From the NCBI GenBank assembly GCA_030428615.1, contig JAUIDN010000018.1, forward strand, positions 2,279-66,278: a DNA stretch of 64,000 nucleotides, read 5' to 3'. Within the stretch, counting starts at the first letter, position 1; every line of letters starts with the position of its first letter. This document shows positions 1 to 12,569 of this stretch, piece after piece. Below the pieces are notes generated by a model. It saw only the letters and a program-made list of their open reading frames with translations. It made no database searches and was not told the origin of the DNA. The DNA is from Alphaproteobacteria bacterium (GTDB taxonomy: Bacteria; Pseudomonadota; Alphaproteobacteria; Sphingomonadales; Emcibacteraceae). Both the position numbers and the translations under genes were made by a program.

Positions 1-396
1 AATATCGAGCTAGGCAAGCATGGGCGTAATCGCACCAACGTGTGGGAATACCCGTCAGTGAACAGCATGGATCCTTCTCGAAAGGGAGACTTGGCACTTC
101 ATCCAACGGTCAAGCCCGTCGCCATGATCGCTGACGCCATTCGCGATAGCTCCAAGCGCGGCCAAATCATTCTTGATCCTTTCGCCGGCAGCGGCACCAC
201 TATTATTGCTGCGGAGATGACAGGACGGATCGCTCGATGTATTGAGCTTGATCCGCACTATTGCGACGTCATCTTATCGCGTTTCGAAGCATTAACTGGG
301 CAGACACCCATAAAGGTTAGTGAGGCTACAAACAACCTGGATAAAGCTGCTGACGCTCAACCTAACAATGCTGATAAGGGGACCGAAAATGAATGA
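1..396 (+). CDS. DNA N4/N6 methyltransferase, C-terminal part (5' end upstream of the window)
   Basis: Frame 1 is open from base 1. HPTVKPV and ILDPFAGSGTT (SAM-binding) motifs are typical of phage/plasmid N4/N6 methylases. Stop at 394-396. Confidence 0.8.
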   Translation, partial: NIELGKHGRNRTNVWEYPSVNSMDPSRKGDLALHPTVKPVAMIADAIRDSSKRGQIILDPFAGSGTTIIAAEMTGRIARCIELDPHYCDVILSRFEALTGQTPIKVSEATNNLDKAADAQPNNADKGTENE

Positions 397-784
397 TTAT
401 GAAATTGGCTACAAAAAACCCCCACCGCATACGCAGTTTAAGCCTGGCCAAAGTGGAAACCCCAAGGGCAAACCCAAAGGTACCAGAGATTTCAAAACCG
501 ATTTGGCCGAAGAACTTCGGGAACGAATTGCGATTAATGAAAGTGGTAAATCGAAAAAAATCTCCAAGCAGCGAGCTCTCATTAAAAGCCTGACTGCTAA
601 AGCTATTAAAGGCGATACTCGATCGGCCACTCTCATCTTAGCCGCTATTGGTCGTTATATGGGCGATGTACCCGAAGACACGAGCGAAACCCCGAGTTCC
701 AACGATATTGAAATAATTGACCGCTTCAAGAAGCGCCTCTTGAACGAACTCAAGGCCGAACAAGAGGAGAAAAATGATGCCTGA
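389..784 (+). CDS. DUF5681-type phage protein (small-terminase-like position)
   Basis: MNDYEIGYKKPPPHTQFKPGQSGNPKGKPKG N-terminus is characteristic of DUF5681. The ATG at 389 overlaps the methylase stop, and the gene sits directly upstream of and overlapping the large terminase. The 320 start in the ORF track is probably an over-extension. Confidence 0.6.
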   Translation: MNDYEIGYKKPPPHTQFKPGQSGNPKGKPKGTRDFKTDLAEELRERIAINESGKSKKISKQRALIKSLTAKAIKGDTRSATLILAAIGRYMGDVPEDTSETPSSNDIEIIDRFKKRLLNELKAEQEEKNDA

Positions 785-2225
785 CATATCACTAGAAGCA
801 ATAATGAGGCAAAACTATAGCGCTTTTTGTCACAAAGGATTTATTACACTTCATCCCGACATCGAATTTGATGATAATTTTCATCTTGAAGCAATTGCCT
901 ATAAAATGGAAAAATGTATCAAAGGCGAAAATACCAGACTGATTATTAATCTTCCCCCCAGAAGTGGTAAGACTCTTTTTGGTTCGGTTTTTTCCGCTGC
1001 ATGGGCGCTCGGTCAGAACCCGAGTAAAAAGATCATCATTGTAACTTATGCTGATGAGCTTTCTAAACAGATAATGCGTCATATAAAACAACTAATGCAG
1101 GAGAGTTGGTATAAATCTACTTTTCCGTCGAGTAAAATTAGCCCTGCTAAAAATACTGAAGCATTGTTCGAAACAACTGAAAATGGGGGCGTTTTCGTAA
1201 CAACAGTTGGAAGTACATTAACAGGTTTCGGCGCCGATATAATAATCGTAGATGATCCGATGAAACCTGGTGATATGAAGTCAGATCCATTGAGATCGAA
1301 AACAAACGAGTGGTATAAAAGCACCCTAAGAACTCGGCTGAACAATGTTAACACCGGTAGTATTATTGTTATCATGCAACGACTACATCAAGATGACCTG
1401 ACCGGACATATCCTTCCGTTAGAGAAATGGACTCACTTAAACCTTCCCGCAAAAAACAATGAAACAAGATCGATTAAATTAAGTGATAAAGTGGAACATC
1501 TTTGGCTCGCAGGCGATCTTCTTCATCCTAGCCGTTTGAATAACGAAGCTCTCAAAAAGATCAGACGAGTTGTCGGAGAATATTTGTACAATGCACAGTA
1601 TCAACAAACCCCCATTCCAGTTGGTGGAAATATGATAGACCCAAGTTGGTTTGGTACTTATGACCCCTCAAAGGCGCTAGTACCGGATAGTTATGTACAA
1701 GTTTGGGATACCGCGACAGATACTGGAGAGAATCACGATTACAGTGTTTGCTTAACCTTCGGCATCATAGGCAAGCATACATATCTCGCTGACATGTATA
1801 GAGAGAAAGTTCAATATCCTACTTTAAGGAAAGCGGCAATAGATCGTGCAAAACATTTTGAACCAAAGACAATTGTTGTGGAAAAAACTAATGTGGGATT
1901 TTCACTTATACCTGAGCTCCGAATTGAAACTGGGTTAAATATAATAGCGGACACACCCAAGCACAGCAAAGAAGAACGATTGGCTTCAGTAAGTCACTAT
2001 ATTGAAATGGGCGTTATCTTATTGCCAAAACAGGGTGATAAATTTCATCCAAGCGTACAGACCTATATTGACGAACTTACTGGTTTCCCGTACGCAAAGA
2101 ATGATGACCTGGTAGACGCAACAAGCTTATTCCTTAAATGGTATAACAAATTAGGCCCTGGAAACCTGATGCCATCGCCGGGCGGGTTCTGCCTTTATGA
2201 TGACGGAAGCATAAAAAACTACTGA
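774..2225 (+). CDS. Phage terminase large subunit
   Basis: 483 aa. Walker A-like LPPRSGKT and Walker B-like IIIVDDP. C-terminal nuclease-type motifs (WDTA..., NDDLVDA) as in PBSX/psiM2-type large terminases. Confidence 0.8.
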   Translation: MMPDISLEAIMRQNYSAFCHKGFITLHPDIEFDDNFHLEAIAYKMEKCIKGENTRLIINLPPRSGKTLFGSVFSAAWALGQNPSKKIIIVTYADELSKQIMRHIKQLMQESWYKSTFPSSKISPAKNTEALFETTENGGVFVTTVGSTLTGFGADIIIVDDPMKPGDMKSDPLRSKTNEWYKSTLRTRLNNVNTGSIIVIMQRLHQDDLTGHILPLEKWTHLNLPAKNNETRSIKLSDKVEHLWLAGDLLHPSRLNNEALKKIRRVVGEYLYNAQYQQTPIPVGGNMIDPSWFGTYDPSKALVPDSYVQVWDTATDTGENHDYSVCLTFGIIGKHTYLADMYREKVQYPTLRKAAIDRAKHFEPKTIVVEKTNVGFSLIPELRIETGLNIIADTPKHSKEERLASVSHYIEMGVILLPKQGDKFHPSVQTYIDELTGFPYAKNDDLVDATSLFLKWYNKLGPGNLMPSPGGFCLYDDGSIKNY

Positions 2226-2329
2226 TTTATGAGTGCCGCCTACTCAAAAAACTAAGTTGTTAAAAAATGACTGGACTTCCTTGCTGAACAGAGCGGTACT
2301 GTCTCCTGCAGTCAAACAAGGAGACAGAC

Positions 2330-2719
2330 ATGCCCGATTATGACCGAAAAGCACTCGTTGAAAAATGGACCAGAATCTATGGTGCGGCACCGCCAAAAGG
2401 GCTTAGCCGCACTACACTTGAACTAGCTAACGCATATGATGAACAGGCCAAAAAATATGGTGGCCTACCTCGGGAGACCGAGCAGCTTCTCTTACGTATT
2501 GCACGGGAGGACAAAGTAGACCTCACCCTGCCCCAAAAACTAAAACCCGGCGCGCGTCTGGTTCGTGAATGGAATGGAACATCTTATGTGGTGGATATCA
2601 TCGAGAGCGGATATCTATGGCAAGACCAGGTCTATAAATCGCTATCAGTTATCGCAAGAGAGATAACAGGCACGAGATGGTCGGGCCCACGCTTCTTTGG
2701 TCTCAGGAGCGCCTCATGA
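2330..2719 (+). CDS. DUF2924 domain protein (commonly paired with serine recombinases)
   Basis: C-terminal WNG..Y.V......Y.W....YKSLS.IAR.ITG..WSGP.FFGL pattern typical of DUF2924. AGGAG is 6 nt upstream of the ATG. ATGA overlap with the recombinase start. Confidence 0.65.
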   Translation: MPDYDRKALVEKWTRIYGAAPPKGLSRTTLELANAYDEQAKKYGGLPRETEQLLLRIAREDKVDLTLPQKLKPGARLVREWNGTSYVVDIIESGYLWQDQVYKSLSVIAREITGTRWSGPRFFGLRSAS

Positions 2720-4296
2720 GCACTAAAAAGCTTAAAGCCGCTATCTATACTCGTAAATCCACAGAATATGGCCTGGAGCAGGATTTTAACAGCCTTGCCG
2801 CGCAGCGGGAAGCGGCGGAAGCCTATATCACCAGTCAGAAGTCACAAGGATGGATTCTCGTCAATAACAACTATGATGATGGTGGCATCTCTGGCGGCAC
2901 CATGGAGCGCCCTGCCCTTCAGACGTTGCTAGATGATGTTAAACGTGGGCGGGTAGACATCATCGTTGTTTACAAAGTAGATCGCCTTACACGGTCCCTC
3001 GCTGACTTTTCAAGGATCATTGATTTGTTGGATGAAGCGGACGCTTCCTTCGTCTCCGTCACCCAGCAATTTAATACGACCGATAGCATGGGGCGTCTTA
3101 CTCTAAATGTGCTCCTGTCCTTCGCTCAGTTTGAACGGGAGGTCACTTCAGAACGTATCCGCGACAAGATCCTCGCCTCCAAACAAAAAGGTATGTGGAT
3201 GGGTGGCACAGTTCCCCTTGGATATGACAACGTGGGAAAAAAGCTGGTGATAAACACAGAAGAAGCAGAACTCATAACACTCATCTTCAAAACGTATCTC
3301 AAGTCTTCTGGGATCAAGGAAACTTGCCAGAAGATCAACGATTTGGGGTACAGAACAAAATCAAGAAACGGAGGGCGGGGCAAAGGAAGTAAGTTCTGGT
3401 GTGGTCATGTTACTTACATTCTGAAGAACCGTTTATATATCGGTGAGATTACGCACAAGCGAAAGTACTATTTGGGAAAACATGAAGCGATCTTAGATCA
3501 GGATATATGGAGCAAAGTTCAAGACAAGATCGAAGCCTCGAAAGCAAATATCAAAAATGGCGTCCACTTTATAAATCCGAGCCTACTTACCGGGATGTTA
3601 AGAACGGACAAGGGAGAAATCCTTAGCCCAACTCATACTAAAAAGAATGAAAATCGCTATCGCTACTATATTACCAAGTCTGATGATCGAAATCATATAT
3701 CGACAAGGTATCCCGCTCAGAAAATTGAGCGCGCTGTCCTTAAAGTACTAAAAAGCGAAATGAGTGATATTTTAAAATGTGAAATAGAAACCTCGGAAAT
3801 GATAACCCGTCTTCAAGCGCCTAACCCAGTTGAAGTCCGGTCGGCATTGCTCGAATTTGTTACGGCCATTTCTGTATCTAATGATAAATTGGAAATCACA
3901 TTGTCTTCCGACTTCGGAAGCAACGATCAACCAATCCTATCGGTGCCCATAGATATAAGTGAATGTTCGCGCGGTCGCAAGAGCATCATCCCATGCGGCG
4001 AGCAAGTCATCCATGAACCGGATCAAAAACTGATCAAACTCATCGCCAATGCATACCTTTACGCAAAGGAACTTCAATCTGGAAAATATAAAACGATGGG
4101 TGAACTCGCCGACAAACTAAGCACCAACAAATCAGATTTAGGTAAGATAGTTCGCCTCTCGTATTTGGCACCTGATATTATCAATGCAGTTATACGAGGC
4201 GAGCAATCCCTACTACTAAATGCAACTTTTCTAAGAAGATTGAAAACGATTTCCGCCGATTGGAAGAATCAAAGAATAGCATTTAATTCAGCCTAA
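2716..4296 (+). CDS. Large serine recombinase (integrase/resolvase family)
   Basis: N-terminal AAIYTRKSTE (catalytic Ser), DGGISG, VDRLTRS and QREVTSERI resolvase motifs, followed by a long recombinase/zinc-ribbon-type C-terminal extension. Start chosen at ATG 2716 (MSTKKLKAAIY), overlapping the DUF2924 stop. Confidence 0.9.
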   Translation: MSTKKLKAAIYTRKSTEYGLEQDFNSLAAQREAAEAYITSQKSQGWILVNNNYDDGGISGGTMERPALQTLLDDVKRGRVDIIVVYKVDRLTRSLADFSRIIDLLDEADASFVSVTQQFNTTDSMGRLTLNVLLSFAQFEREVTSERIRDKILASKQKGMWMGGTVPLGYDNVGKKLVINTEEAELITLIFKTYLKSSGIKETCQKINDLGYRTKSRNGGRGKGSKFWCGHVTYILKNRLYIGEITHKRKYYLGKHEAILDQDIWSKVQDKIEASKANIKNGVHFINPSLLTGMLRTDKGEILSPTHTKKNENRYRYYITKSDDRNHISTRYPAQKIERAVLKVLKSEMSDILKCEIETSEMITRLQAPNPVEVRSALLEFVTAISVSNDKLEITLSSDFGSNDQPILSVPIDISECSRGRKSIIPCGEQVIHEPDQKLIKLIANAYLYAKELQSGKYKTMGELADKLSTNKSDLGKIVRLSYLAPDIINAVIRGEQSLLLNATFLRRLKTISADWKNQRIAFNSA

Positions 4297-4507
4297 GGTT
4301 GATTTTATTGTGCTAATCAATTAAACTATCAATTGTTAGTTGGGGACTTTTTATGGATAACAAAAAGCTAAAACAAGAATAAATTTGAGCTCCAATCTAA
4401 CGGTAGGTGGATTGAGCTGAGTTGGTATTAAGTTGCTTCCATTTTCAACTCGAAGCGGAAATTGTGAAAGCAATTAGAGCGATTAGTTTAAGCAGAATGG
4501 AAAAATC

Positions 4508-6835
4508 ATGGAACCGGTCTTCGTTGATCTTCATATCCACACTTCGTCAAATTTTGAGCAACCAAATGAAGGTTATGATTTGAAGCAGCTAAAAGCGGGT
4601 ATCGAAGCGATTGCCGGTGAACAACCATATCTCATATCGATCACTGATCACAATTTTGTTAACAAGAAGGTGTACCTGGAAGCTGTTCAAGAAATCGAAC
4701 ACATATTGCTTGGTGTAGAACTTCATATAAGGAACTACCCTGAATGTAAGCCATATCATTGCCACATGATCTTCAATATAGAAGCAATTGACGCCGCAAC
4801 AATTGACGATGTAAATGATAAATTAGATGAACTCTTTCCTAAGAAAACTGTCAGCAACGATGATAATATACCTAGCTTGGAAACAATAATGAATTGCTTC
4901 GATAGTTATGAGTTCTTACTTCTTCCACACGGAGGACAAAATCACTCTACTTTTGACACATCCATCCCTCATGGAGTTGAATTTGACAAAACAATGGAAA
5001 GAAACATTTACTATAATCACTTTGATGGATTTACGGCTAGAGGCACTGGTGGTTTAGAGAGGACGCTAAGATATTTCGAACGCTTGGGTATTAAGGACTT
5101 TGTTAATTTGGTAACGGCGACAGATAATTATACCCCGAATACTTACCCGGACTGCAAAGCTGGTCGGGCCGCATCCGATTTCGTACCCACATGGATGCTT
5201 GCATCTCCAACTTTTAATGGATTGAGATTGTCTCTCTCGGAATCGTCTCGGTTGGTTTATGGTGATAAGCCGGATTCTTGGTTTGAGTATATTGAATCAG
5301 TATCATTAAATAATGAAAATATTGATATAGATGTGAAGCTTACCCCAGGACTGAATGTGGTAATTGGCGGGTCTTCAAGTGGAAAATCATTATTTGCAGA
5401 CTCTCTATATCGCAAAATCACAAATGATTTTGAAGATAGCGACTATATCGATACCCCATACCAAATAGAAAAAATTGAGGTAACAAATCCAGCTGGGCAG
5501 CATCCGCATTATTTCAATCAAAATTACATTCTGAAAGTGTGTGATCAGAAGGACCAGAACAACACGATTGATAATATATCAATTCTAAAAAGTGTGTTTC
5601 CTCCTGACGACATTGAAAGAAACAAAATCGTAAATGCCCTACATGGGCTAAGTTCAAGCCTAAAGGATCTCGTTCAATCAATTACAGAAATTGAATTATT
5701 GCAAGAGGCCCTGAATAAGATTCCTGTCTTGTCAAGATTAATCGTTACAGAGGAAATTCATGACAATCCAATACGCCTAATTCTTCCAAGGCACAGAGAC
5801 ATGGAGCTAATTAGTTACTCAGAGGCAGACTATGACCGACACAATCAAATTCTTGAAGAAATCGATCAAACCCTTGCAAAAAACCCTCTAGTTGTGCACA
5901 ACACGGATTTAGTAACAGAACTTCAGCAAGAGCTGATTGAGGCATTCAATAATTCTCTTTTTGAAGAAATTGTCAGAGCTAATATTACTGAACATAAGTC
6001 TCTATTAGACGACGCTCAGATAAAGGAAAATCAAAAGGTCAAGTTGAGAACCAACGAATTTCAAAACTTGTTGGATTGTATAAAGAAATATCTGAGATTT
6101 GAGAAACAATTTTACGAATCTCTAGTTGAAATATCTAAGTTCTCAATAAAGATTCCAAACAAGCCTATAACGTCTATGGGGCATAAACTATCCATTGAGA
6201 ATAAGTTTGAACTCTCCAAAGAGAAATTCTTAGCTGTAATCAATGAAACTCTCAAAGCGGAGTATCAAATCGCGTCCTTTGAAGACTTGACCCCAGAATT
6301 ATTATTTAAGCATCGATTTAAAAGAAGAGACCCTAAAATTGTCGAATATCAAGATTTTGAAAACTATGTAAATCATAGGTTTTCTGAAATGAACAAGAAG
6401 ACCTACAAAATTATTACAAATGATGGCCGGAATTTTGATGAACTGAGTGCTGGATGGAAGACATCTGTTATACTGGACTTGGTGCTTGGATGGGATGCCG
6501 ATCGTGCTCCACTAATAATCGATCAGCCTGAGGATAATCTAGCCACAGGTTATATTAATGCCGGACTACTCTCAGCTATCAAAGAATGCAAATCGAAGAA
6601 GCAGATAATACTTATTTCTCATAACGCTACGATTCCAATGCTAGGGGATGCTCAAAACATCGTCTTCTGCACCAATGACAATAATAAAATATCAATTGCA
6701 TCCAATCCACTTGAGGGAGAGATTAATGGTAAAAATGTCGTGGATTTGATTGCCGAAGTAACTGATGGAGGAAAATCGTCAATCAAGAAGCGTGTGAAGA
6801 AATACAATCTTAAAGACTTTCGAGGTGAAGAATGA
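4508..6835 (+). CDS. PHP-domain phosphoesterase fused to a coiled-coil SMC/Rad50-like ABC ATPase (Ppl-like candidate defence protein)
   Basis: PHP motifs in order: VDLHIHT, ITDHN, GVELH, LLPHGG. ATPase motifs: LNVVIGGSSSGKS Walker A (nt 5366-5389), a ~330-aa E/K/L/Q-rich insertion, ELSAGWKT signature-like, PLIIDQPEDNL Walker B (nt 6512-6541) and ILISHN His-switch. No competing ORF on other frames. Confidence 0.8.
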   Translation: MEPVFVDLHIHTSSNFEQPNEGYDLKQLKAGIEAIAGEQPYLISITDHNFVNKKVYLEAVQEIEHILLGVELHIRNYPECKPYHCHMIFNIEAIDAATIDDVNDKLDELFPKKTVSNDDNIPSLETIMNCFDSYEFLLLPHGGQNHSTFDTSIPHGVEFDKTMERNIYYNHFDGFTARGTGGLERTLRYFERLGIKDFVNLVTATDNYTPNTYPDCKAGRAASDFVPTWMLASPTFNGLRLSLSESSRLVYGDKPDSWFEYIESVSLNNENIDIDVKLTPGLNVVIGGSSSGKSLFADSLYRKITNDFEDSDYIDTPYQIEKIEVTNPAGQHPHYFNQNYILKVCDQKDQNNTIDNISILKSVFPPDDIERNKIVNALHGLSSSLKDLVQSITEIELLQEALNKIPVLSRLIVTEEIHDNPIRLILPRHRDMELISYSEADYDRHNQILEEIDQTLAKNPLVVHNTDLVTELQQELIEAFNNSLFEEIVRANITEHKSLLDDAQIKENQKVKLRTNEFQNLLDCIKKYLRFEKQFYESLVEISKFSIKIPNKPITSMGHKLSIENKFELSKEKFLAVINETLKAEYQIASFEDLTPELLFKHRFKRRDPKIVEYQDFENYVNHRFSEMNKKTYKIITNDGRNFDELSAGWKTSVILDLVLGWDADRAPLIIDQPEDNLATGYINAGLLSAIKECKSKKQIILISHNATIPMLGDAQNIVFCTNDNNKISIASNPLEGEINGKNVVDLIAEVTDGGKSSIKKRVKKYNLKDFRGEE

Positions 6836-7068
6836 AATTAGTATTTTGCAAGAACGAAGACCTGGAAATATCCGTGTTCAAAGAAGTCTCCGGCAATAGG
6901 GAGGAATTTAGTTATATTGATATGATAAAAGATCTTATTGCAACAAGAGAGTTAGAAGCCTCTGAATTGGAAGGTGAATTTTCTGATGCAGAAATTAACA
7001 GTATTAATTCAATGGTTGATCACATCAATGATGAGATCGCTGAATTCTACTCTGAAGACGAAGAATAA
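6832..7068 (+). CDS. Small, highly acidic protein translationally coupled to the PHP-ATPase
   Basis: ATG overlaps the upstream stop (ATGA at 6832-6835). 78 aa with 23 Asp/Glu versus 6 Lys/Arg by my count. No family recognised. Confidence 0.55.
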   Translation: MKLVFCKNEDLEISVFKEVSGNREEFSYIDMIKDLIATRELEASELEGEFSDAEINSINSMVDHINDEIAEFYSEDEE

Positions 7069-7185
7069 CTTCTAAGAACTATTCGAAATGTGGTTATCCA
7101 ACTTTCAATTAGTAGAAATAATTTTTAAGCAGCTGCCCATTTTTGGCTGAATGCAGTTATTAATCAACTTACTTTAGGTAATTTG

Positions 7186-7265
7186 AAAAACAGCGGACAC
7201 TTTGGATAGGATCAGAGACTTTGGGAGAAAATGCATCGAATTTCCGGATAATTAGACGTCTCTGT
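7186..7265. repeat. Copy A of a ~80-nt conserved element
   Basis: Motif blocks: AAAAACAGCGGACACTTTG, N8, CAGAGACTYTGGG, ~20 nt, GATAAT, N3-4, CGTCTCTGT. They are shared with 8842-8919 in the same order and spacing. The first 40 nt match at 33/40 ungapped, including a perfect 19-mer. Contains a 7-bp inverted repeat CAGAGAC/GTCTCTG. Confidence 0.75.
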
Positions 7266-7357
7266 CCGCTTGTTAGCACAAACAACCAAGCTAATCCATT
7301 GATACTTAAACACTAAGTATATAGTGATAATAATACCAAGGTTAGCAGGAGAATGGA

Positions 7358-7392
7358 TGGTGGCACGTAGTAAGTTCGAACTAGTCTCCTCC
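7358..7392 (-). pseudogene. Decayed tRNA 3'-half fragment (att-like remnant)
   Basis: TGGTGGCACGTAGTAAGTTCGAACTAGTCTCCTCC aligns ungapped with the 3' 37 nt of tRNA-Val (9013-9049) at 26/37. The match includes the CCA-acceptor end and the TTCGAAC T-loop. T-stem pairing is only partial, so it is not a functional tRNA. Confidence 0.45.
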
Positions 7393-7593
7393 TTACTATC
7401 AACCCATTGAATCCATTATACTAATATCTCTCAATTTCAGCTTTCACACGAAAATGGATACTTGAGCATCCATTAAGAGGGTTTTTCTTAATGTAACTGT
7501 ACATAATAAAGGATTAACTTGACTTCAATACTATATTTATATACTTATAATATATATATGTATTATTCTATGATTATTAACAAGGAGGTTAAT

Positions 7594-8031
7594 ATGCCTG
7601 CCGTAAAAGAAAATACAAATGCCACAGCCGCTTTTAGCCCTGAAATTCTGCGGGATCCCGAAAAACGCAGAGCTTATTCTGCAACCGCTATGAAAGCGTT
7701 TGTGCGAATGATGGATGAATGGAACGCACCCGTTGCGCAGCGTTGTGCGATATTGGGCGATATTCCTCAACAAACTTACTACAAATGGGCAAGAGGTGAG
7801 GTAACTACGCTCAGCCGCGACCAGTTAGAACGCATTGGAGTTACGCTTGGGATCTACAAAGGTCTTCGCATTCTCTTTAATGATGAGGGTGGTCGAAACA
7901 GATGGTTTAAAAGTGCCAATCATGATTACGCTTTCAGAGGTCAAACACCTGTTGATAGGATGGCTGCAGGAAGCATTACCGATCTTTATGCTGTGAGAGA
8001 ATACGTAGATGGTATGCGTGGTGCTCACTAA
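7594..8031 (+). CDS. Xre-family antitoxin with DUF2384 toxin-binding domain (MbcA/ParS type)
   Basis: AGGAGG lies 5 nt upstream of ATG 7594 (the 7519 start in the ORF track is likely an over-extension). HTH-like middle region and a C-terminal P.DRM....I.DLYAV..Y.D pattern typical of DUF2384. The stop abuts the RES gene start. Confidence 0.85.
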   Translation: MPAVKENTNATAAFSPEILRDPEKRRAYSATAMKAFVRMMDEWNAPVAQRCAILGDIPQQTYYKWARGEVTTLSRDQLERIGVTLGIYKGLRILFNDEGGRNRWFKSANHDYAFRGQTPVDRMAAGSITDLYAVREYVDGMRGAH

Positions 8032-8736
8032 ATGTCCGAATTCGATTATGTCACTGATGAACGTAATATAAGTCGCCTAATAAATAGTGCATATCCTACA
8101 GTCAGTGTATTTGAAACGTTGGCCGATACACCCGAAGAAATACGGGATCTCTTTGCGTTGGAAATGAGTACAAATCCAAGACTAAATGCTCCCCTCGGTA
8201 GGCTTGCCCTAATTCCCGATGAAGGTATAGTCACTGGTGATTCAGCAACATATGTTATGGCAGCATTTGTCCATTCCAATGAAGATGGCGGCCGCTTTAA
8301 TGATGGACGACTTGGCGCATGGTATGCTGCTTTTGAAGTCGAAACAACTATAAGTGAAACTGTGTATCACCTGAGCAAGCGATTAGCTATGTCTGAAGGT
8401 GGCTTTCCTCAAAGAATACAAATGAGGGAATTAATCACTTCCATTGGCGTTCCCTTATTAAATCTTTGTGGCTGTCGAGAAACTCATCCAGAGTTATACG
8501 ATTTGGACGACTATTCTAAATCCCAAGACTTTGCTAATTCAATTAGATGGCCGTTCGCCAAGGATGGTAATGCGGGAATCCTATTTGATAGTGTTAGACG
8601 AGAAGGATACAAAAATGTATGTATTTTCAATCCAACTGCACTTAATCGCCCTGTGAATCAAGGGGATCACTATCAATATGATTGGGATAGTGAAGGTAAG
8701 GTAACTGTTTCAAAAATTATTAACATTGTTGTATAA
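8032..8736 (+). CDS. RES-domain toxin (NAD+-targeting MbcT/ParT family)
   Basis: GGRFNDG (Arg), WYAAFEVETTISE (Glu) and LFDSVRREG (Ser) motifs in RES order. Starts 1 nt after the antitoxin stop, which is the classic Xre-RES operon layout. Confidence 0.85.
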   Translation: MSEFDYVTDERNISRLINSAYPTVSVFETLADTPEEIRDLFALEMSTNPRLNAPLGRLALIPDEGIVTGDSATYVMAAFVHSNEDGGRFNDGRLGAWYAAFEVETTISETVYHLSKRLAMSEGGFPQRIQMRELITSIGVPLLNLCGCRETHPELYDLDDYSKSQDFANSIRWPFAKDGNAGILFDSVRREGYKNVCIFNPTALNRPVNQGDHYQYDWDSEGKVTVSKIINIVV

Positions 8737-8841
8737 GATTTTAGCGAACCTGACTATGATCAGAGCAAGCTTTATTCTCTAATAAAATATCAAATTTGAA
8801 AATAATCCTTAATATGAAGAATCTAGCTTCGGTACAAATTC

Positions 8842-8919
8842 AAAAACAGCGGACACTTTGATTTGCTCCAGAGACTCTGGGTTATTTTGCCATATACTAT
8901 TGATAATAACCGTCTCTGT
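8842..8919. repeat. Copy B of the ~80-nt conserved element
   Basis: Same motif blocks and spacing as 7186-7265. Lies 93 nt from the 3' end of tRNA-Val, while copy A lies 92 nt from the tRNA-like fragment. Confidence 0.75.
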
Positions 8920-9012
8920 ACCCGAATTTACACAGATAAACTATACGTAAGTCTTTGAAATATAAACATTACTTCTTTAGCGTGTATAATATTATATTTC
9001 TTCAATTATAGA

Positions 9013-9087
9013 TGGTGGGCGGTACAAGGGTCGAACTTGTGACCTCCTCGATGTCAACGAGGCGCTCTACCACTGAGCTAACCGCCC
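9013..9087 (-). tRNA. tRNA-Val (anticodon GAC)
   Basis: The reverse complement folds as a cloverleaf: GGGCGGT/ACCGCCC acceptor, GCTC/GAGC D-stem, CCTCG-TTGACAT-CGAGG anticodon arm and ACAAG-TTCGACC-CTTGT T-arm. CCA is encoded. Confidence 0.95.
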
Positions 9088-9220
9088 GCACAGTGTGAAT
9101 TGGGATTTATACCCAATTTATTAAAAGAAGCAAGTCCAAACATTTACCAAACACTATATTTTATTCATGGAACATTAAGGCATCTTTTGATAATCTTATC
9201 CAAGTCAAAGGATCAATGTT

Positions 9221-9820
9221 ATGAATATGATTTTTAAAATATGTATCTTCCTCTTGGGGTCATTCATTCTCGCGGCCTGTTCACGAAGCGTGGAAAGTAA
9301 TGTAACCCGCTTTCATCAATTACCAACACCGAGCGGAGAAACCATCGAAGTTATCGCCATGGACCCGACACTGCAGCAGTCGATCGAATTTGGAACCTAT
9401 GCCCAGTTGATTGGTAAGAAACTAGGCGATGTGGGATATGCCCCACCACAGGGAAACAGATCCAAGTTGATCGCTGAAATTGGCTATAGTCTCATCCCGT
9501 TGCAGGACGCCATTATCGAAAACAGGTCACCGGTTTCCGTTGGTGTTGGCATTGGCAGCGGTAGTCGTCGCGGCACATCCGTAGGAGTTGGTGTCTCAAC
9601 AGGTTTTGGCTCATCAAGTAGTTCAGCACAATATATCGGCCATCTCAGCATGAATATTGTTGACCTGACCACGGGCACCCGACTATATGAAGGCCATGCG
9701 GAAAGCATAAGCCGGGATCAGAATTTAGCACAGATAATGCCGTTTCTAATTGACGCCTTATTTAAAGATTTTCCCGGCGAAAGCGGCACGTCAAACAAGG
9801 TAAAAGTGACTCCGAATTAA
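9221..9820 (+). CDS. Putative lipoprotein with a Gly/Ser-rich segment
   Basis: Signal peptide with lipobox (FILAAC). Internal VGVGIGSGS...GFGSSSSS low-complexity stretch. Family not recognised with confidence. Confidence 0.6.
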   Translation: MNMIFKICIFLLGSFILAACSRSVESNVTRFHQLPTPSGETIEVIAMDPTLQQSIEFGTYAQLIGKKLGDVGYAPPQGNRSKLIAEIGYSLIPLQDAIIENRSPVSVGVGIGSGSRRGTSVGVGVSTGFGSSSSSAQYIGHLSMNIVDLTTGTRLYEGHAESISRDQNLAQIMPFLIDALFKDFPGESGTSNKVKVTPN

Positions 9821-9844
9821 AGTATAAAACCAACTGGATTTTCC

Positions 9845-10480
9845 ATGATTTCATCGAAAAAGTCACCCCAAACATGTGACCGGTTACCCGCGAGCAACCC
9901 GTCGGAATCAACGCTTGATCTGCTTATGCTGCGCAGGTCCCTTACGGTTAAGGACATGGCTCATCCCGGCCCGAGCGCGGCACAGCTTGAGCAGATCCTT
10001 ACGATTGGCTCACGCGTACCTGACCACAAAAAACAGGTGCCGTGGCGCTTTCTCACTTTCGAAGGGAAGAGCCGTGCTGACATCGGTAAAATATTAAGGG
10101 CCACGTTTGAGGAAAAAAATCCCGATGCAGACAATACTATATTGGAATTTGAACAAAACCGCTTTATGCGGGCACCATTGATTATTGCTGTTATTTCAAC
10201 CGCCACACCGGAAAATCCAAAGGTTCCCGAATGGGAGCAGATACTGACCGCAGGGGCCGTTTGCCAGAATATTCTGATTGCCGCCAATGCAATGGGGTTT
10301 GCTGGCCAGTGGCTGTCAGAATGGTATTGCTATGATGATGACGTGCTAAAGGCGATGAACGTGGCACCCGTCGAACGTGTCGCAGGATTTATTTATATTG
10401 GCACCGCGACAAAAGAACCCGCCGAACGCGGAAGACCCGATCTCACTGAAATTACGCAGTCGTGGTCAATAAACGCTTAA
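9845..10480 (+). CDS. Nitroreductase family protein
   Basis: 211 aa. PDHKKQVPWRF and AAGAVCQNILIAANAMGF motifs typical of NAD(P)H nitroreductases. Confidence 0.75.
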   Translation: MISSKKSPQTCDRLPASNPSESTLDLLMLRRSLTVKDMAHPGPSAAQLEQILTIGSRVPDHKKQVPWRFLTFEGKSRADIGKILRATFEEKNPDADNTILEFEQNRFMRAPLIIAVISTATPENPKVPEWEQILTAGAVCQNILIAANAMGFAGQWLSEWYCYDDDVLKAMNVAPVERVAGFIYIGTATKEPAERGRPDLTEITQSWSINA

Positions 10481-10935
10481 AAAAAGTCGTGAGAGACAAT
10501 TATTTTATTCACATTTTCACCGTCGTCAGATAACGGCAAGACAACGAAGGATGTGCTGACGTAGTTTTTGTTTATATTTCCAAGATTTTTGATCGCGTAA
10601 TACGGTTTCCTGTTCTTTACGCACCATAATAAACGTTTGACCGCCTTCTGGTGAGGTTTAAGATCATTCATCTTCTCACCCGTATGTTCTCCGTATAAAT
10701 TCACACATGCCGTACCAATGAGGCGGAAAATAAATGCTTCATCGCTCTTATCAAAATCAATCAACATTATGCTGGGTAAGTAATCTTTAAGTTCAAAAAT
10801 ATCAATATCGGAACGGGAAGGCATGAGCCGACCTTCTTTTAATTCTGTCCAATATTTATACAGAGTGAGCTGATGCGGCGCCGTGAAGTCATCATCATTA
10901 AATTTCAAGAATAATTTTATATCTTCATCATCCAT
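10477..10935 (-). CDS. PAS_5 (DUF1457)-type PAS domain protein
   Basis: L..YW...K.GR.MPSRSDID..ELKDYLP..MLID pattern is typical of the small alphaproteobacterial PAS_5 family. Confidence 0.6.
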   Translation of the reverse strand: MDDEDIKLFLKFNDDDFTAPHQLTLYKYWTELKEGRLMPSRSDIDIFELKDYLPSIMLIDFDKSDEAFIFRLIGTACVNLYGEHTGEKMNDLKPHQKAVKRLLWCVKNRKPYYAIKNLGNINKNYVSTSFVVLPLSDDGENVNKIIVSHDFF

Positions 10936-10979
10936 AGCTTAGTTATAGCCGCCTTCAAATCATAAATATATAGCCAAAC

Positions 10980-12569
10980 TTAAACCAATTGTTCTTTTGT
11001 TTTAAGAAATCTCAAATCGGGGTTTTCTTCTATCGCTTTATCAAGGCGCCATGAATTACGGGCAAGAAAAACCGGGGATCCGTTATGGTCTTCCGCCATA
11101 TTGGCTTTATTACTATCAATGAATTTCTTTACTTTGAACGGATCGTCCCCTTCTACCCAGCGTGCCGTATAGAGGGACGTGTTTTCAAACCTGCAGGGTA
11201 CATCATACTCCGTCCGGATGCGGTCCGCCATGACTTCAAACTGAAGCATACCGACAACACCGACGTACCACTCTGCGCCGATGACCGGCTTAAAAACGCG
11301 CGCGGCGCCCTCTTCGGCCAGTTGGTATAATGCCCGTGACAAATGCTTTGCTTTCATGGGATCTTCCGCACGCACCGTTTGAATATGCTCCGGCGCGAAG
11401 CTTGGAATACCGGTGAATTTCAGGTCTTCGCCTTCTGTCAGGCTATCCCCGATACGAAGGTTCCCATGGTTCGGAATACCTATAATGTCACCGGGCCATG
11501 CTTCTTCGGCGAGTTCACGGTCCTGCGCCAGAAAAAGAACGGGGTTATGAAGATTAACTGTCTTGCCGTCGCGGACATGTTTTAATTTCATCCCTCTTTT
11601 GAACTTTCCCGACACAAGACGAAAAAATGCGATACGGTCGCGGTGTTTGGGATCCATATTCGCCTGAATTTTAAATACAAATCCGCTTACCTTCGTTTCA
11701 TGCGCGTCAACGTCCCTTAGGGTTGTCGCATAGCGACCCGGAACAGGCGCATATTCAGTCAATCCGTTTAAGAGTTCCTTTACACCAAAAGTATTAATGG
11801 CGGATCCAAAATATACCGGTGTCAACGTGCCTTCAAGATAGGCCTGCTGATCAAACGCCGGGCACAATTCCCTCACCATTTCAACTTCTTCCCGTAACTG
11901 TTCCACCAGATTATCGGGTAAAAGTTCATCAAGTTTCGGGTCATCAATCCCCTGACATACAACACCGGCGTCGGGAATATCCCCCTTACTTCGTTCAATC
12001 AGGATCAGTCTATCATTGATAAGATCATAACAACCTTTAAAATCCCGCCCCATGCCGATCGGCCAGGTGGCTGGCGCCACATCAAGAGCAAGTTTATCCG
12101 CAAGGTCATCCAGAAGATCAAAGGGGTTCAGCGCTTCACGGTCCATTTTATTAAAAAATGAAATCACTGGCATATCGCGAAGGCGGCATACCTCGAACAG
12201 CTTTTTTGTTTGTCCTTCTACCCCTTTCGCAGAATCCAGAACCATAACCGCACTATCAACCGCAGTAAGAACCCGGTATGTATCTTCGGAGAAATCTTCG
12301 TGCCCCGGCGTATCGAGCAGATTAAACATCCGCTTCTCATATTCGAATGACATTACGGAAGACGCTACGGAAATACCCCGCTCCTGCTCCACTTTCATCC
12401 AATCGGAGCGCGCTCGGCGACGGTCACCGCGCGCCTTAACCTCACCCGCCAATTGTATGGCACCACCGAAAAGCAGCAACTTTTCAGTCAGGGTCGTTTT
12501 ACCGGCATCCGGATGGGCGATGATCGCAAATGTTTTTCGACGGTCTACTTCTTTATCAAGTAAAGACAT
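10980..12569 (-). CDS. prfC: Peptide chain release factor 3
   Basis: RRKTFAIIAHPDAGKTT G1 motif, DTPGHEDF and NKMDR GTPase motifs, with length and C-terminus typical of RF3. ATG at 12569 is preferred over the TTG at 12581. Confidence 0.93.
   Translation of the reverse strand: MSLLDKEVDRRKTFAIIAHPDAGKTTLTEKLLLFGGAIQLAGEVKARGDRRRARSDWMKVEQERGISVASSVMSFEYEKRMFNLLDTPGHEDFSEDTYRVLTAVDSAVMVLDSAKGVEGQTKKLFEVCRLRDMPVISFFNKMDREALNPFDLLDDLADKLALDVAPATWPIGMGRDFKGCYDLINDRLILIERSKGDIPDAGVVCQGIDDPKLDELLPDNLVEQLREEVEMVRELCPAFDQQAYLEGTLTPVYFGSAINTFGVKELLNGLTEYAPVPGRYATTLRDVDAHETKVSGFVFKIQANMDPKHRDRIAFFRLVSGKFKRGMKLKHVRDGKTVNLHNPVLFLAQDRELAEEAWPGDIIGIPNHGNLRIGDSLTEGEDLKFTGIPSFAPEHIQTVRAEDPMKAKHLSRALYQLAEEGAARVFKPVIGAEWYVGVVGMLQFEVMADRIRTEYDVPCRFENTSLYTARWVEGDDPFKVKKFIDSNKANMAEDHNGSPVFLARNSWRLDKAIEENPDLRFLKTKEQLV

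Follow-up and report, generated by a model that had tools for sequence, protein, structure and literature searches.

What does a protein that joins a PHP-fold metal-phosphoesterase domain to an ATP-binding cassette (ABC) ATPase do when it is encoded together with a tiny acidic partner? The question is raised by a gene pair in a 64,000 nt stretch of DNA (the window; contig JAUIDN010000018.1, assembly GCA_030428615.1, positions 2,279 to 66,278) from an alphaproteobacterium of the Emcibacteraceae. An earlier note, made from the letters of the window, had described the pair as a candidate Ppl-like defence module with a dedicated small partner. Both open reading frames (ORFs) are where it had put them: an ATG-initiated gene for a 775 aa PHP-domain/ABC-ATPase fusion (4508..6835, plus strand, stop codon included) and an ATG-initiated gene for a 78 aa acidic protein (6832..7068, plus strand), the stop of the first overlapping the start of the second by four bases, ATGA. 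A Shine–Dalgarno-like GAGGTG (6822..6827, plus strand) lies within the 3′ end of the large gene, 4 nt 5′ of the partner ATG, and the opposite strand holds just short ORFs (51–58 aa), none of them supported. On balance, and with modest confidence, we favour the view that the pair is a self-contained, horizontally mobile anti-phage or anti-plasmid nuclease-ATPase with a stoichiometric acidic regulatory subunit.

All eight motifs that the earlier note had quoted for the large protein are at the residues it gave. Those of the N-terminal domain (aa 1–255; 4508..5272, plus strand) are VDLHIHT (6–12, with H9 and H11), ITDHN (45–49), GVELH (69–73) and LLPHGG (138–143), and the ligand-type residues of the domain are H9, H11, D47/H48, E71, H84, H141 and D206. 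In an alignment of 45 sequences, reaching down to approximately 20% identity, D7, H9, H11, D47, H48, E71, H84 and D206 are invariant and H141 nearly so; since this holds for the residues of the PHP and ABC motifs alike, these are not chance matches. The Pfam PHP model (PF02811) found nothing in the whole protein (E ≤ 0.01) or in aa 1–261 alone (E ≤ 10). The PHP assignment made in the note therefore fails as a Pfam match and holds as architecture, resting on remote homology and fold. Distant relatives in the alignment do match PF02811 at their N-termini, the best being P0204 with 28.8 bits (gathering score 26.4). With hhalign, a profile of the short forms of this protein aligned end to end with long, TrlF-class forms that carry the canonical SDAH motif (probability 100, E 3.5e-77), and Foldseek matched the AlphaFold2 (AF2) model to the PHP phosphoesterase BAD_1165 (3o0f; E 2.1e-5, but a template modelling score of only 0.44). 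As the invariant motifs, the P0204-type Pfam matches, hhalign and Foldseek concur, we accept the fold, and the N-terminal domain is likely to be a PHP-fold member. The ligand set (HxH, H, E, H, H, DxH) is complete except for its final histidine: the canonical SD-x-H reads TDNY in the window protein (aa 204–208; 5117–5131), with Y208 in place of His. All 28 members of the tight family of close homologues in the alignment have [ST]DNY, with Tyr for the last His, while the TrlF-class forms and most distant short forms retain His at this position.

From aa 262 onwards the protein has every feature of a Rad50/SMC-type ABC ATPase: Walker A, Q-loop, signature, Walker B/D-loop, H-loop and a helical insertion. 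The N-terminal lobe of the head (aa 262–345; 5291..5542, plus strand) contains the Walker A motif GGSSSGKS (G287–S294, with K293) and the Q-loop residue Q338. The C-terminal lobe (aa 546–735; 6143..6712, plus strand) contains the signature LSAGW (646–650, within ELSAGWKT, 645–652), the Walker B/D-loop IIDQPEDN (670–677, within LIIDQPEDNL, 669–678, with D672 and E675) and the H-loop residue H705 in ILISHN (701–706). G292, K293, Q338, the D672-Q-P-E-D676 run and H705 are invariant, S647 and G649 nearly so. The AF2 model (predicted local distance difference test (pLDDT) 86.9, predicted template modelling score 0.69) consists of an N-terminal alpha/beta domain, a split ABC head, an arm (368–543) and short C-terminal helices. 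Pfam yielded SMC_N and AAA_21 below threshold only, and a PDB search with the single sequence gave noise (E ≥ 0.03). A profile built from the alignment, run against PDB sequences, recovered AriA of the PARIS system (7.2e-10) and Rad50 (7.6e-10), as well as SMC5/6, and Foldseek matched the model to SMC, condensin, cohesin, RecN, Rad50, JetC and AriA heads (E 3e-8 to 1e-4). The combination of a PHP domain with a Rad50/SMC-type ABC ATPase, as proposed in the note, is thus upheld by the alignment, the PDB profile, the P0204-type Pfam matches, Foldseek and hhalign.

AriA is the best profile match among solved structures and also a Foldseek match. PARIS, too, is an immune module of two genes, centred on an ABC ATPase whose coiled coil is short. 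The nuclease of PARIS is the TOPRIM protein AriB, whereas here it would be the PHP domain fused to the ATPase, and the second gene of the window encodes a 78 aa acidic protein without a nuclease fold. The head, the helical arm and the fused nuclease might instead suggest a housekeeping DNA-repair complex of the SbcCD or Mre11–Rad50 kind, with PHP in place of the Mre11 nuclease. The arm speaks against this. It had been described as a coiled-coil insertion of approximately 330 aa; it is indeed a helical arm (aa 358–543; 5579..6136, plus strand; helices 368–404, 421–457 and 466–543 by DSSP of the AF2 model), but one of approximately 175 aa within an insertion of approximately 300 aa, far below the arm length of Rad50 or SMC proteins, and no CxxC zinc hook was found in it, there being no invariant cysteine in the 45-sequence alignment. 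The window protein shares with Rad50–Mre11/SbcCD, Wadjet and Lamassu an associated nuclease and an antiparallel helical arm that divides the ABC head. It differs from them in its arm (approximately 175 versus 500–900 aa, without a hook), in lacking a kleisin-like or Mre11-like subunit, and in a partner which by AF2 and Foldseek has neither a kleisin winged helix nor an Mre11 fold. The distribution of the family, described below, makes a repair complex highly improbable.

The C-terminal helices (6737..6832, plus strand) carry a basic 16-mer, GGKSSIKKRVKKYNLK (aa 754–769; 6767–6814), identified from the alignment and from charge counts. G754, G755, R762 and Y766 are invariant, and this GG..R...Y core is common to Ppl and TrlF. 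The 16-mer as a whole is nearly invariant and specific to the tight family, with a net charge of +7 in the window protein and of +5 to +8, mostly +7, across that family (one exception, P0137, has +3). The equivalent segment of distant short and long forms has a net charge of 0 to +4. The 16-mer could be a docking site for the acidic tail of the partner or for DNA.

To which family does the large protein belong? Among the model libraries used here (PADLOC-DB 2.0.0, NCBIfam 20, Pfam and PHROGs), the nearest named family is NCBIfam TrlF (NF045780), with 190.4 bits against a cut-off of 350. Spaf_1101 (NF045781) scored 114.4 bits (cut-off 475) and Ppl (NF042955) 66.8 bits (cut-off 1000), the last in a match limited to aa 633–764. 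The protein is a member of the TrlF/Spaf_1101/Ppl superfamily that lies below all three curated cut-offs. The PADLOC Ppl model (PDLC02208) matched with E 3.6e-16 over model positions 764–890 of 894 only (127 positions, approx. 14%). The Ppl-like label is therefore not supported as the note words it: the protein is not Ppl, since it falls short of the Ppl cut-off, the match is partial and a partner gene is present.

Ppl also combines an N-terminal PHP domain and a C-terminal NTPase in one polypeptide, and the C-terminal ATPase lobe and GG..R...Y tail (aa 633–764) are homologous. The window protein, however, is approximately 100 aa shorter, has Tyr for the last PHP His, and comes from a family with a partner gene at every assessable locus (see below), while Ppl is described as a single-gene system. 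A 2026 review presents E. coli Ppl as a 3′–5′ exonuclease of single-stranded DNA (ssDNA) that is inhibited while nucleoside triphosphates (NTPs) occupy both domains and is switched on by nucleotide depletion together with 3′-OH ends. Wukong, compared by description only, has the same domain order of PHP exonuclease and ATPase; it is longer by approximately 250 aa (approx. 1026 aa), is a single gene, and is restrained transcriptionally by Cascade and a CRISPR RNA-like RNA, not by a protein partner. Wukong degrades ssDNA and several double-stranded DNA forms in vitro, is toxic when derepressed, and needs both active sites for immunity to T-even phages. Of the studied proteins it is the best experimental guide to how the large protein may act. 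By homology to Ppl and Wukong, the window protein would have NTP-gated nuclease activity on DNA ends or ssDNA.

TrlF is homologous over the full length and has the same PHP, ABC and helical-arm architecture, which raises the possibility that the pair, like the Photorhabdus TRL locus, arrests growth in response to stress or temperature rather than serving immunity. In Photorhabdus, the TRL locus consists of a trlR regulator gene, trlF and trlG (AlbA_2/HATPase_c_4), and the operon limits growth at 36°C; that phenotype was assigned to trlG, and trlF carried no mutations (PMC7554251). TrlF is the nearest named family, yet the window protein stays under its cut-off, and proteins that pass it are 860–990 aa long, have the canonical SDAH and lack a small downstream ORF. 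The layout is missing as well, since the window has neither trlR upstream nor trlG (AlbA_2 plus HATPase_c_4) downstream. We regard a TRL-type role as improbable, and a regulated nuclease-ATPase remains the preferred reading.

The dedicated partner predicted in the note proved to be a constant feature. A homologue of the small gene lies directly 3′ of the large gene in 59/59 assessable loci elsewhere, from several phyla. These comprise all 11 genomic contexts (L001, L003, L005, L007–L010 and L092–L095), where the partner starts between −64 nt (more likely −25, from an alternative ATG) and +6 nt relative to the stop of the large gene, and 48 of the 51 tight-family loci in a metagenome sample that includes some near-duplicates. 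The other three could not be assessed, the contig ending before the large-gene stop or no more than 55 nt past it, so that the metagenome count is 48/48. Identity to the window pair is correlated between the large and small proteins (Spearman 0.69, p 1e-6, n = 39), with the partner diverging faster than the large protein. As the note had suspected, the two-gene arrangement appears undescribed: neither it in its strict form nor the short/long rule set out below was found in the full-text literature or in Pfam, NCBIfam, PADLOC and PHROG, although newer releases or papers may differ.

The partner itself has an isoelectric point (pI) of 4.05, with 23 D/E against 6 K/R, and ends in the acidic tail EFYSEDEE. 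AF2 predicts a beta3-alpha-beta-alpha fold (three strands, helix, strand, long helix; pLDDT 90.5) without a significant Foldseek neighbour (best E 0.19 in PDB and 0.089 in BFVD). It matched no model in Pfam, PHROGs, NCBIfam or PADLOC, and the family appears undescribed in these libraries and the literature searched. A profile search retrieved 296 homologue clusters, all of 73–98 aa and all unannotated, many of them from the same contigs as large-protein matches, judging by shared lengths. K7, F26, Y28, E54 and N66 are invariant. Among 121 partner homologues, 83% have at least three net acidic residues in the last 12, and 43 have the F-[YF]-[SA]-acidic ending seen in the window. An origin of the partner by the splitting of a domain from the long forms was considered and rejected at the sequence level (hhalign probability 0.1 against TrlF-class proteins).

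The significant partial matches of the Ppl and TrlF models might be taken to mean that the locus holds an ordinary single-gene Ppl/TrlF protein, the 78-codon ORF being a chance or non-functional one. This is scarcely credible. Three curated cut-offs were failed, the ORF is conserved as a protein, with its invariant residues, at each of the assessable loci across phyla, its homologue clusters are numerous and its predicted structure confident, and in integron cassettes the gene lies within the cassette boundaries.

Does the partner requirement extend beyond the tight family? Relatives sampled from viral and metagenome contigs fall under a simple rule. In all 17 short relatives (773–858 aa; 7/7 viral, 10/10 metagenome) the stop codon is overlapped or directly followed by an acidic ORF, which encodes a protein of 93–124 aa with a pI of 4.1–4.7; the five that were scored reached 139–306 bits, under the TrlF cut-off. 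Long relatives (about 860–990 aa) have an acidic downstream ORF in 0 of approximately 40, a pool of viral and metagenome sets that includes the viral L015 and L076 (862 and 887 aa), and the five scored ones, at 465–667 bits, all passed the cut-off. No significant homology was detected by hidden Markov model searches or hhalign between the partner families of different short clades, and none of the distant relatives' partners matches PADLOC.

Two features of these distant partners bear on what a partner may do. The partner genes of L150 (3725–4405) and L160 (6312–7019) encode a LexA-like Peptidase_S24 domain in fusion with the partner domain (Pfam E 7e-22 and 5e-22), which hints at control by RecA-stimulated self-cleavage. 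In another short-clade group, 5/6 partners end in D-[DA]-D-[LFV]-P-F. The SSB of E. coli has D-D-D-I-P-F as its C-terminal tip, through which exonuclease I, RecQ and further enzymes are recruited, and we read the PF-type endings of the partners as resembling that tip. Endings of this type also occur in true homologues of the window partner: SDEDLPF/SDENLPF (L116, L119, L125), ESIPF (L117) and ESDIPF (P0385, P0393). Many partners thus have D-D-[LIV]-P-F-type endings, those of L147, L148, L157, L050 and L079 among them.

One reading of these endings is that the partners are SSB-tip decoys, or damage-released tails, by which the PHP 3′–5′ exonuclease/ABC-ATPase would monitor the cellular state of ssDNA, SSB and RecA. 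The tail of a resting partner would plug the enzyme's SSB-tail- or DNA-binding site, and the nuclease would be unleashed by phage SSBs, by phage proteins that bind SSB tails or, in the LexA-fused variants, by self-cleavage stimulated by RecA*. If true, this would be a new sensing principle, and it would account for the need for a partner in short but not in long forms. We hold it to be quite unlikely, and continue with the more general reading of the partner as a stoichiometric regulatory subunit.

How widely does the family occur, and by what route does it spread? Homologues of the large protein form 1104 clusters at E ≤ 0.001, the top 120 of which are full-length at 62–83% identity. The top clusters come from Shewanella, Cycloclasticus, Pseudohongiella, Endoriftia, Sedimenticola and many metagenomes, and matches in genomes at 46–79% identity from Alphaproteobacteria, Planctomycetes, Desulfatiglandales and Bacteroidales. 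An exhaustive search returned 5432 relatives, in which approximately 17 full-length representatives of 50% clusters at 39–46% identity are followed by a broad shell at 20–30%. The spread is patchy across phyla at 60–80% identity, which argues for horizontal transfer and against the housekeeping repair complex considered above.

Integron cassettes provide a vehicle. The pair lies in attC-rich integron arrays in four genomes. A strict attC regular expression was too strict and found no site anywhere; repeat analysis and reading of the sequence revealed those of the four genomes. In Ca. Endoriftia persephone (L003/L004) and Pseudohongiella spirulinae (L001) an attC site stands directly before the large gene and another directly after the partner (L003, 7888–7966 and 10568–10640; L001, approximately 7906–7962 and 10597–10660). 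As these sites enclose both genes, with the partner stop inside the R′′ box in L003, the cassette consists of exactly two genes, which move as one unit. In Shewanella algae (L005/L006) and Cycloclasticus (L093) a canonical attC lies 3′ of the pair, and 5′ only an R′-box-like sequence. A length of approximately 2.6 kb is large for one integron cassette. Phage-defence systems are by now known among integron cassettes (Kieffer 2025, Darracq 2025).

Neighbouring genes differ at every locus, in keeping with the variable, mobile setting that the note had proposed. One locus has an MmeI-type restriction–modification enzyme, a DEAD helicase and a T5orf172 gene; one has nSTAND, Imm32 and PIN_12 genes; one has SMODS, TIR and HNH genes and four toxin–antitoxin (TA) pairs; and at others there are HigB and Xre fragments or a tyrosine integrase. 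Carriage on cassettes and islands with changing neighbours, like the AT-rich island position of the window pair, is a further argument against a repair function. Homology and these genomic contexts together point to a defence role.

The superfamily at large is also found on plasmids, with matches in 852 PLSDB records, mostly conjugative plasmids of Enterobacteriaceae. The best of these (H1–H15, e.g. NZ_CP053380.1, 79609–82230) are mostly annotated as TrlF family, and in Pseudomonas an ‘RNA-binding domain’ (TrlG-like) gene comes after some of the matches. Relatives of a third class, of approximately 620–710 aa, were matched in the C-terminal ATPase lobe only and are always followed by a protein of approximately 362–386 aa with a recurring ‘KWEVR’ motif (L017, L024, L027, L032, L036, L039, L040, L043, L044, L046, L053, L055, L058, L066, L073, L078 and L084); this looks like a different two-gene system.

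In the window, the surroundings of the pair agree with those reported in the note: the serine recombinase, the Xre/RES pair and the tRNA were all found (Pfam, ARAGORN, Rfam), and the DNA around the pair is AT-richer, with a GC fraction of 0.36–0.39 over approximately 4000–9000 versus 0.46–0.51 in flanking housekeeping DNA. The gene order is phage-type genes, DUF2924, serine recombinase, pair, Xre/RES and tRNA. The large serine recombinase (2677..4296, plus strand; Pfam Resolvase 7.7e-37, Recombinase 2.2e-16) is likely to be the mobility gene of the island, and a DUF2924 gene lies 5′ of it (2330–2719, plus strand; 1.3e-36). Positions 40–2225 hold phage-type genes (a DNA methylase fragment, DUF5681 and a large terminase), and these packaging-type genes adjoin DUF2924 and the recombinase directly, without structural genes between them (40–4296). 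This segment may represent one end of a prophage or satellite, the other lying beyond the window; the left boundary of the element was not found in the window. On the other side, positions 7069–7518, between the pair and Xre/RES, are 450 nt of AT-rich DNA with no ORF of at least 50 aa and no Rfam match. An Xre-type antitoxin (7519–8031, plus strand; Xre_MbcA_ParS_C 2.4e-9, Xre-like-HTH 3e-6) and a RES-domain toxin (8032–8736, plus strand; RES 6.1e-23) follow. Translation of the Xre ORF probably begins further 3′ than the annotated TTG (7519), since the approximately 50 N-terminal residues gained with that start carry no domain. A tRNA-Val(GAC) (9013..9087, minus strand; ARAGORN, Rfam tRNA 70.3 bits), with its 3′ end toward the island, was the sole match of an Rfam scan of 1–12000. 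No attC-like site was found beside the window pair by regular-expression search, repeat analysis or sequence reading, and a promoter and terminator scan around the pair was uninformative, with counts the same as in shuffled sequence.

The Xre/RES pair beside the window locus, and the classic TA cassettes around the pair in integron arrays, raise the question of whether the pair is itself chiefly a toxin–antitoxin or addiction module, in which a nuclease-ATPase toxin and a labile acidic antitoxin would stabilise integron arrays, islands and prophages. A small acidic protein translationally coupled to a potentially toxic nuclease would suit such a role, as would the toxicity of the relative Wukong when derepressed; gene coupling and charge complementarity are indirect signs of a partner that might bind and neutralise a toxin. 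A 775 aa, ATPase-gated enzyme is, however, far more elaborate than the usual TA toxins, the toxin-first gene order is unusual, and the characterized relatives serve phage defence. The two roles are also compatible, many defence systems being TA-like. That addiction is the chief function seems to us an unlikely alternative to defence.

How, then, would a defensive nuclease-ATPase with a regulatory partner work? The large protein may be sensor and effector in one. Nucleotide and DNA would be bound by two ABC heads held on a short helical arm, with DNA ends or 3′ single-stranded ends as the probable DNA target, and this binding would gate the N-terminal PHP metal-dependent nuclease. Once active, the nuclease would degrade invader DNA and, if unchecked, host DNA too. 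Through translational coupling the partner would be made in fixed proportion to the large protein and bind it. Gene coupling, charge complementarity, and the LexA-type fusions and SSB-tail-like ends of relatives all suggest a physical complex in which the partner is inhibitory. Its likeliest role would be that of a lock, with the acidic tail occupying the basic C-terminal surface or that for DNA binding; at a signal of infection the partner would be displaced or destroyed, freeing the enzyme. A stoichiometric lock seems the most economical proposal because the partner is obligatory, coupled, acidic and faces a basic tail, and because relatives have protease fusions and SSB-like ends.

Several observations weigh against this interpretation. 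The replacement of the ninth PHP ligand by Tyr throughout the tight family means that catalytic competence or chemistry may differ. The link to phages is indirect, since the tight family was not found in a scan of phage contigs, nor at high identity in PLSDB plasmids; IMG/VR and PLSDB yield only distant relatives of it (≤ 40% identity). Since no homology was detected between the partner families of different clades, the implications of the S24 fusions and of most DDLPF endings may not carry over to the window partner, which itself ends in EFYSEDEE and not in PF. In the one TrlF locus that has been studied, growth arrest was traced to trlG, not trlF. Finally, literature searches found no paper on defence by this family.

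Taken together, the pair is probably a regulated variant of the Ppl/Wukong/TrlF proteins. PHP-ATPase fusions of this kind are a recognised, thinly studied class of bacterial immune and growth-control proteins, and the architecture of the large protein was already known; the two-gene form, the partner family and the short/long rule appear new. The sequences show the architecture, the conservation of the catalytic residues, the strict pairing and the joint mobility of the two genes. Candidate defence systems are numerous, and we infer the function of this one as set out above. The finding defines a large unnamed branch of the class, with more than 1000 clusters at 90% identity, across phyla and mostly in environmental genomes and metagenomes. 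Defence annotation tools currently miss the pair or would mislabel it, and should include it. Its compact size of 2.6 kb and its carriage as an integron cassette make it convenient for cloning and testing. The branch is separated from the studied forms by a testable rule, in that short proteins always have an acidic partner and long ones never do. This rule offers a handle on how potentially self-destructive nucleases are kept silent, and the acidic tails, SSB-tip-like ends and LexA-type protease fusions of the partners indicate candidate regulators.

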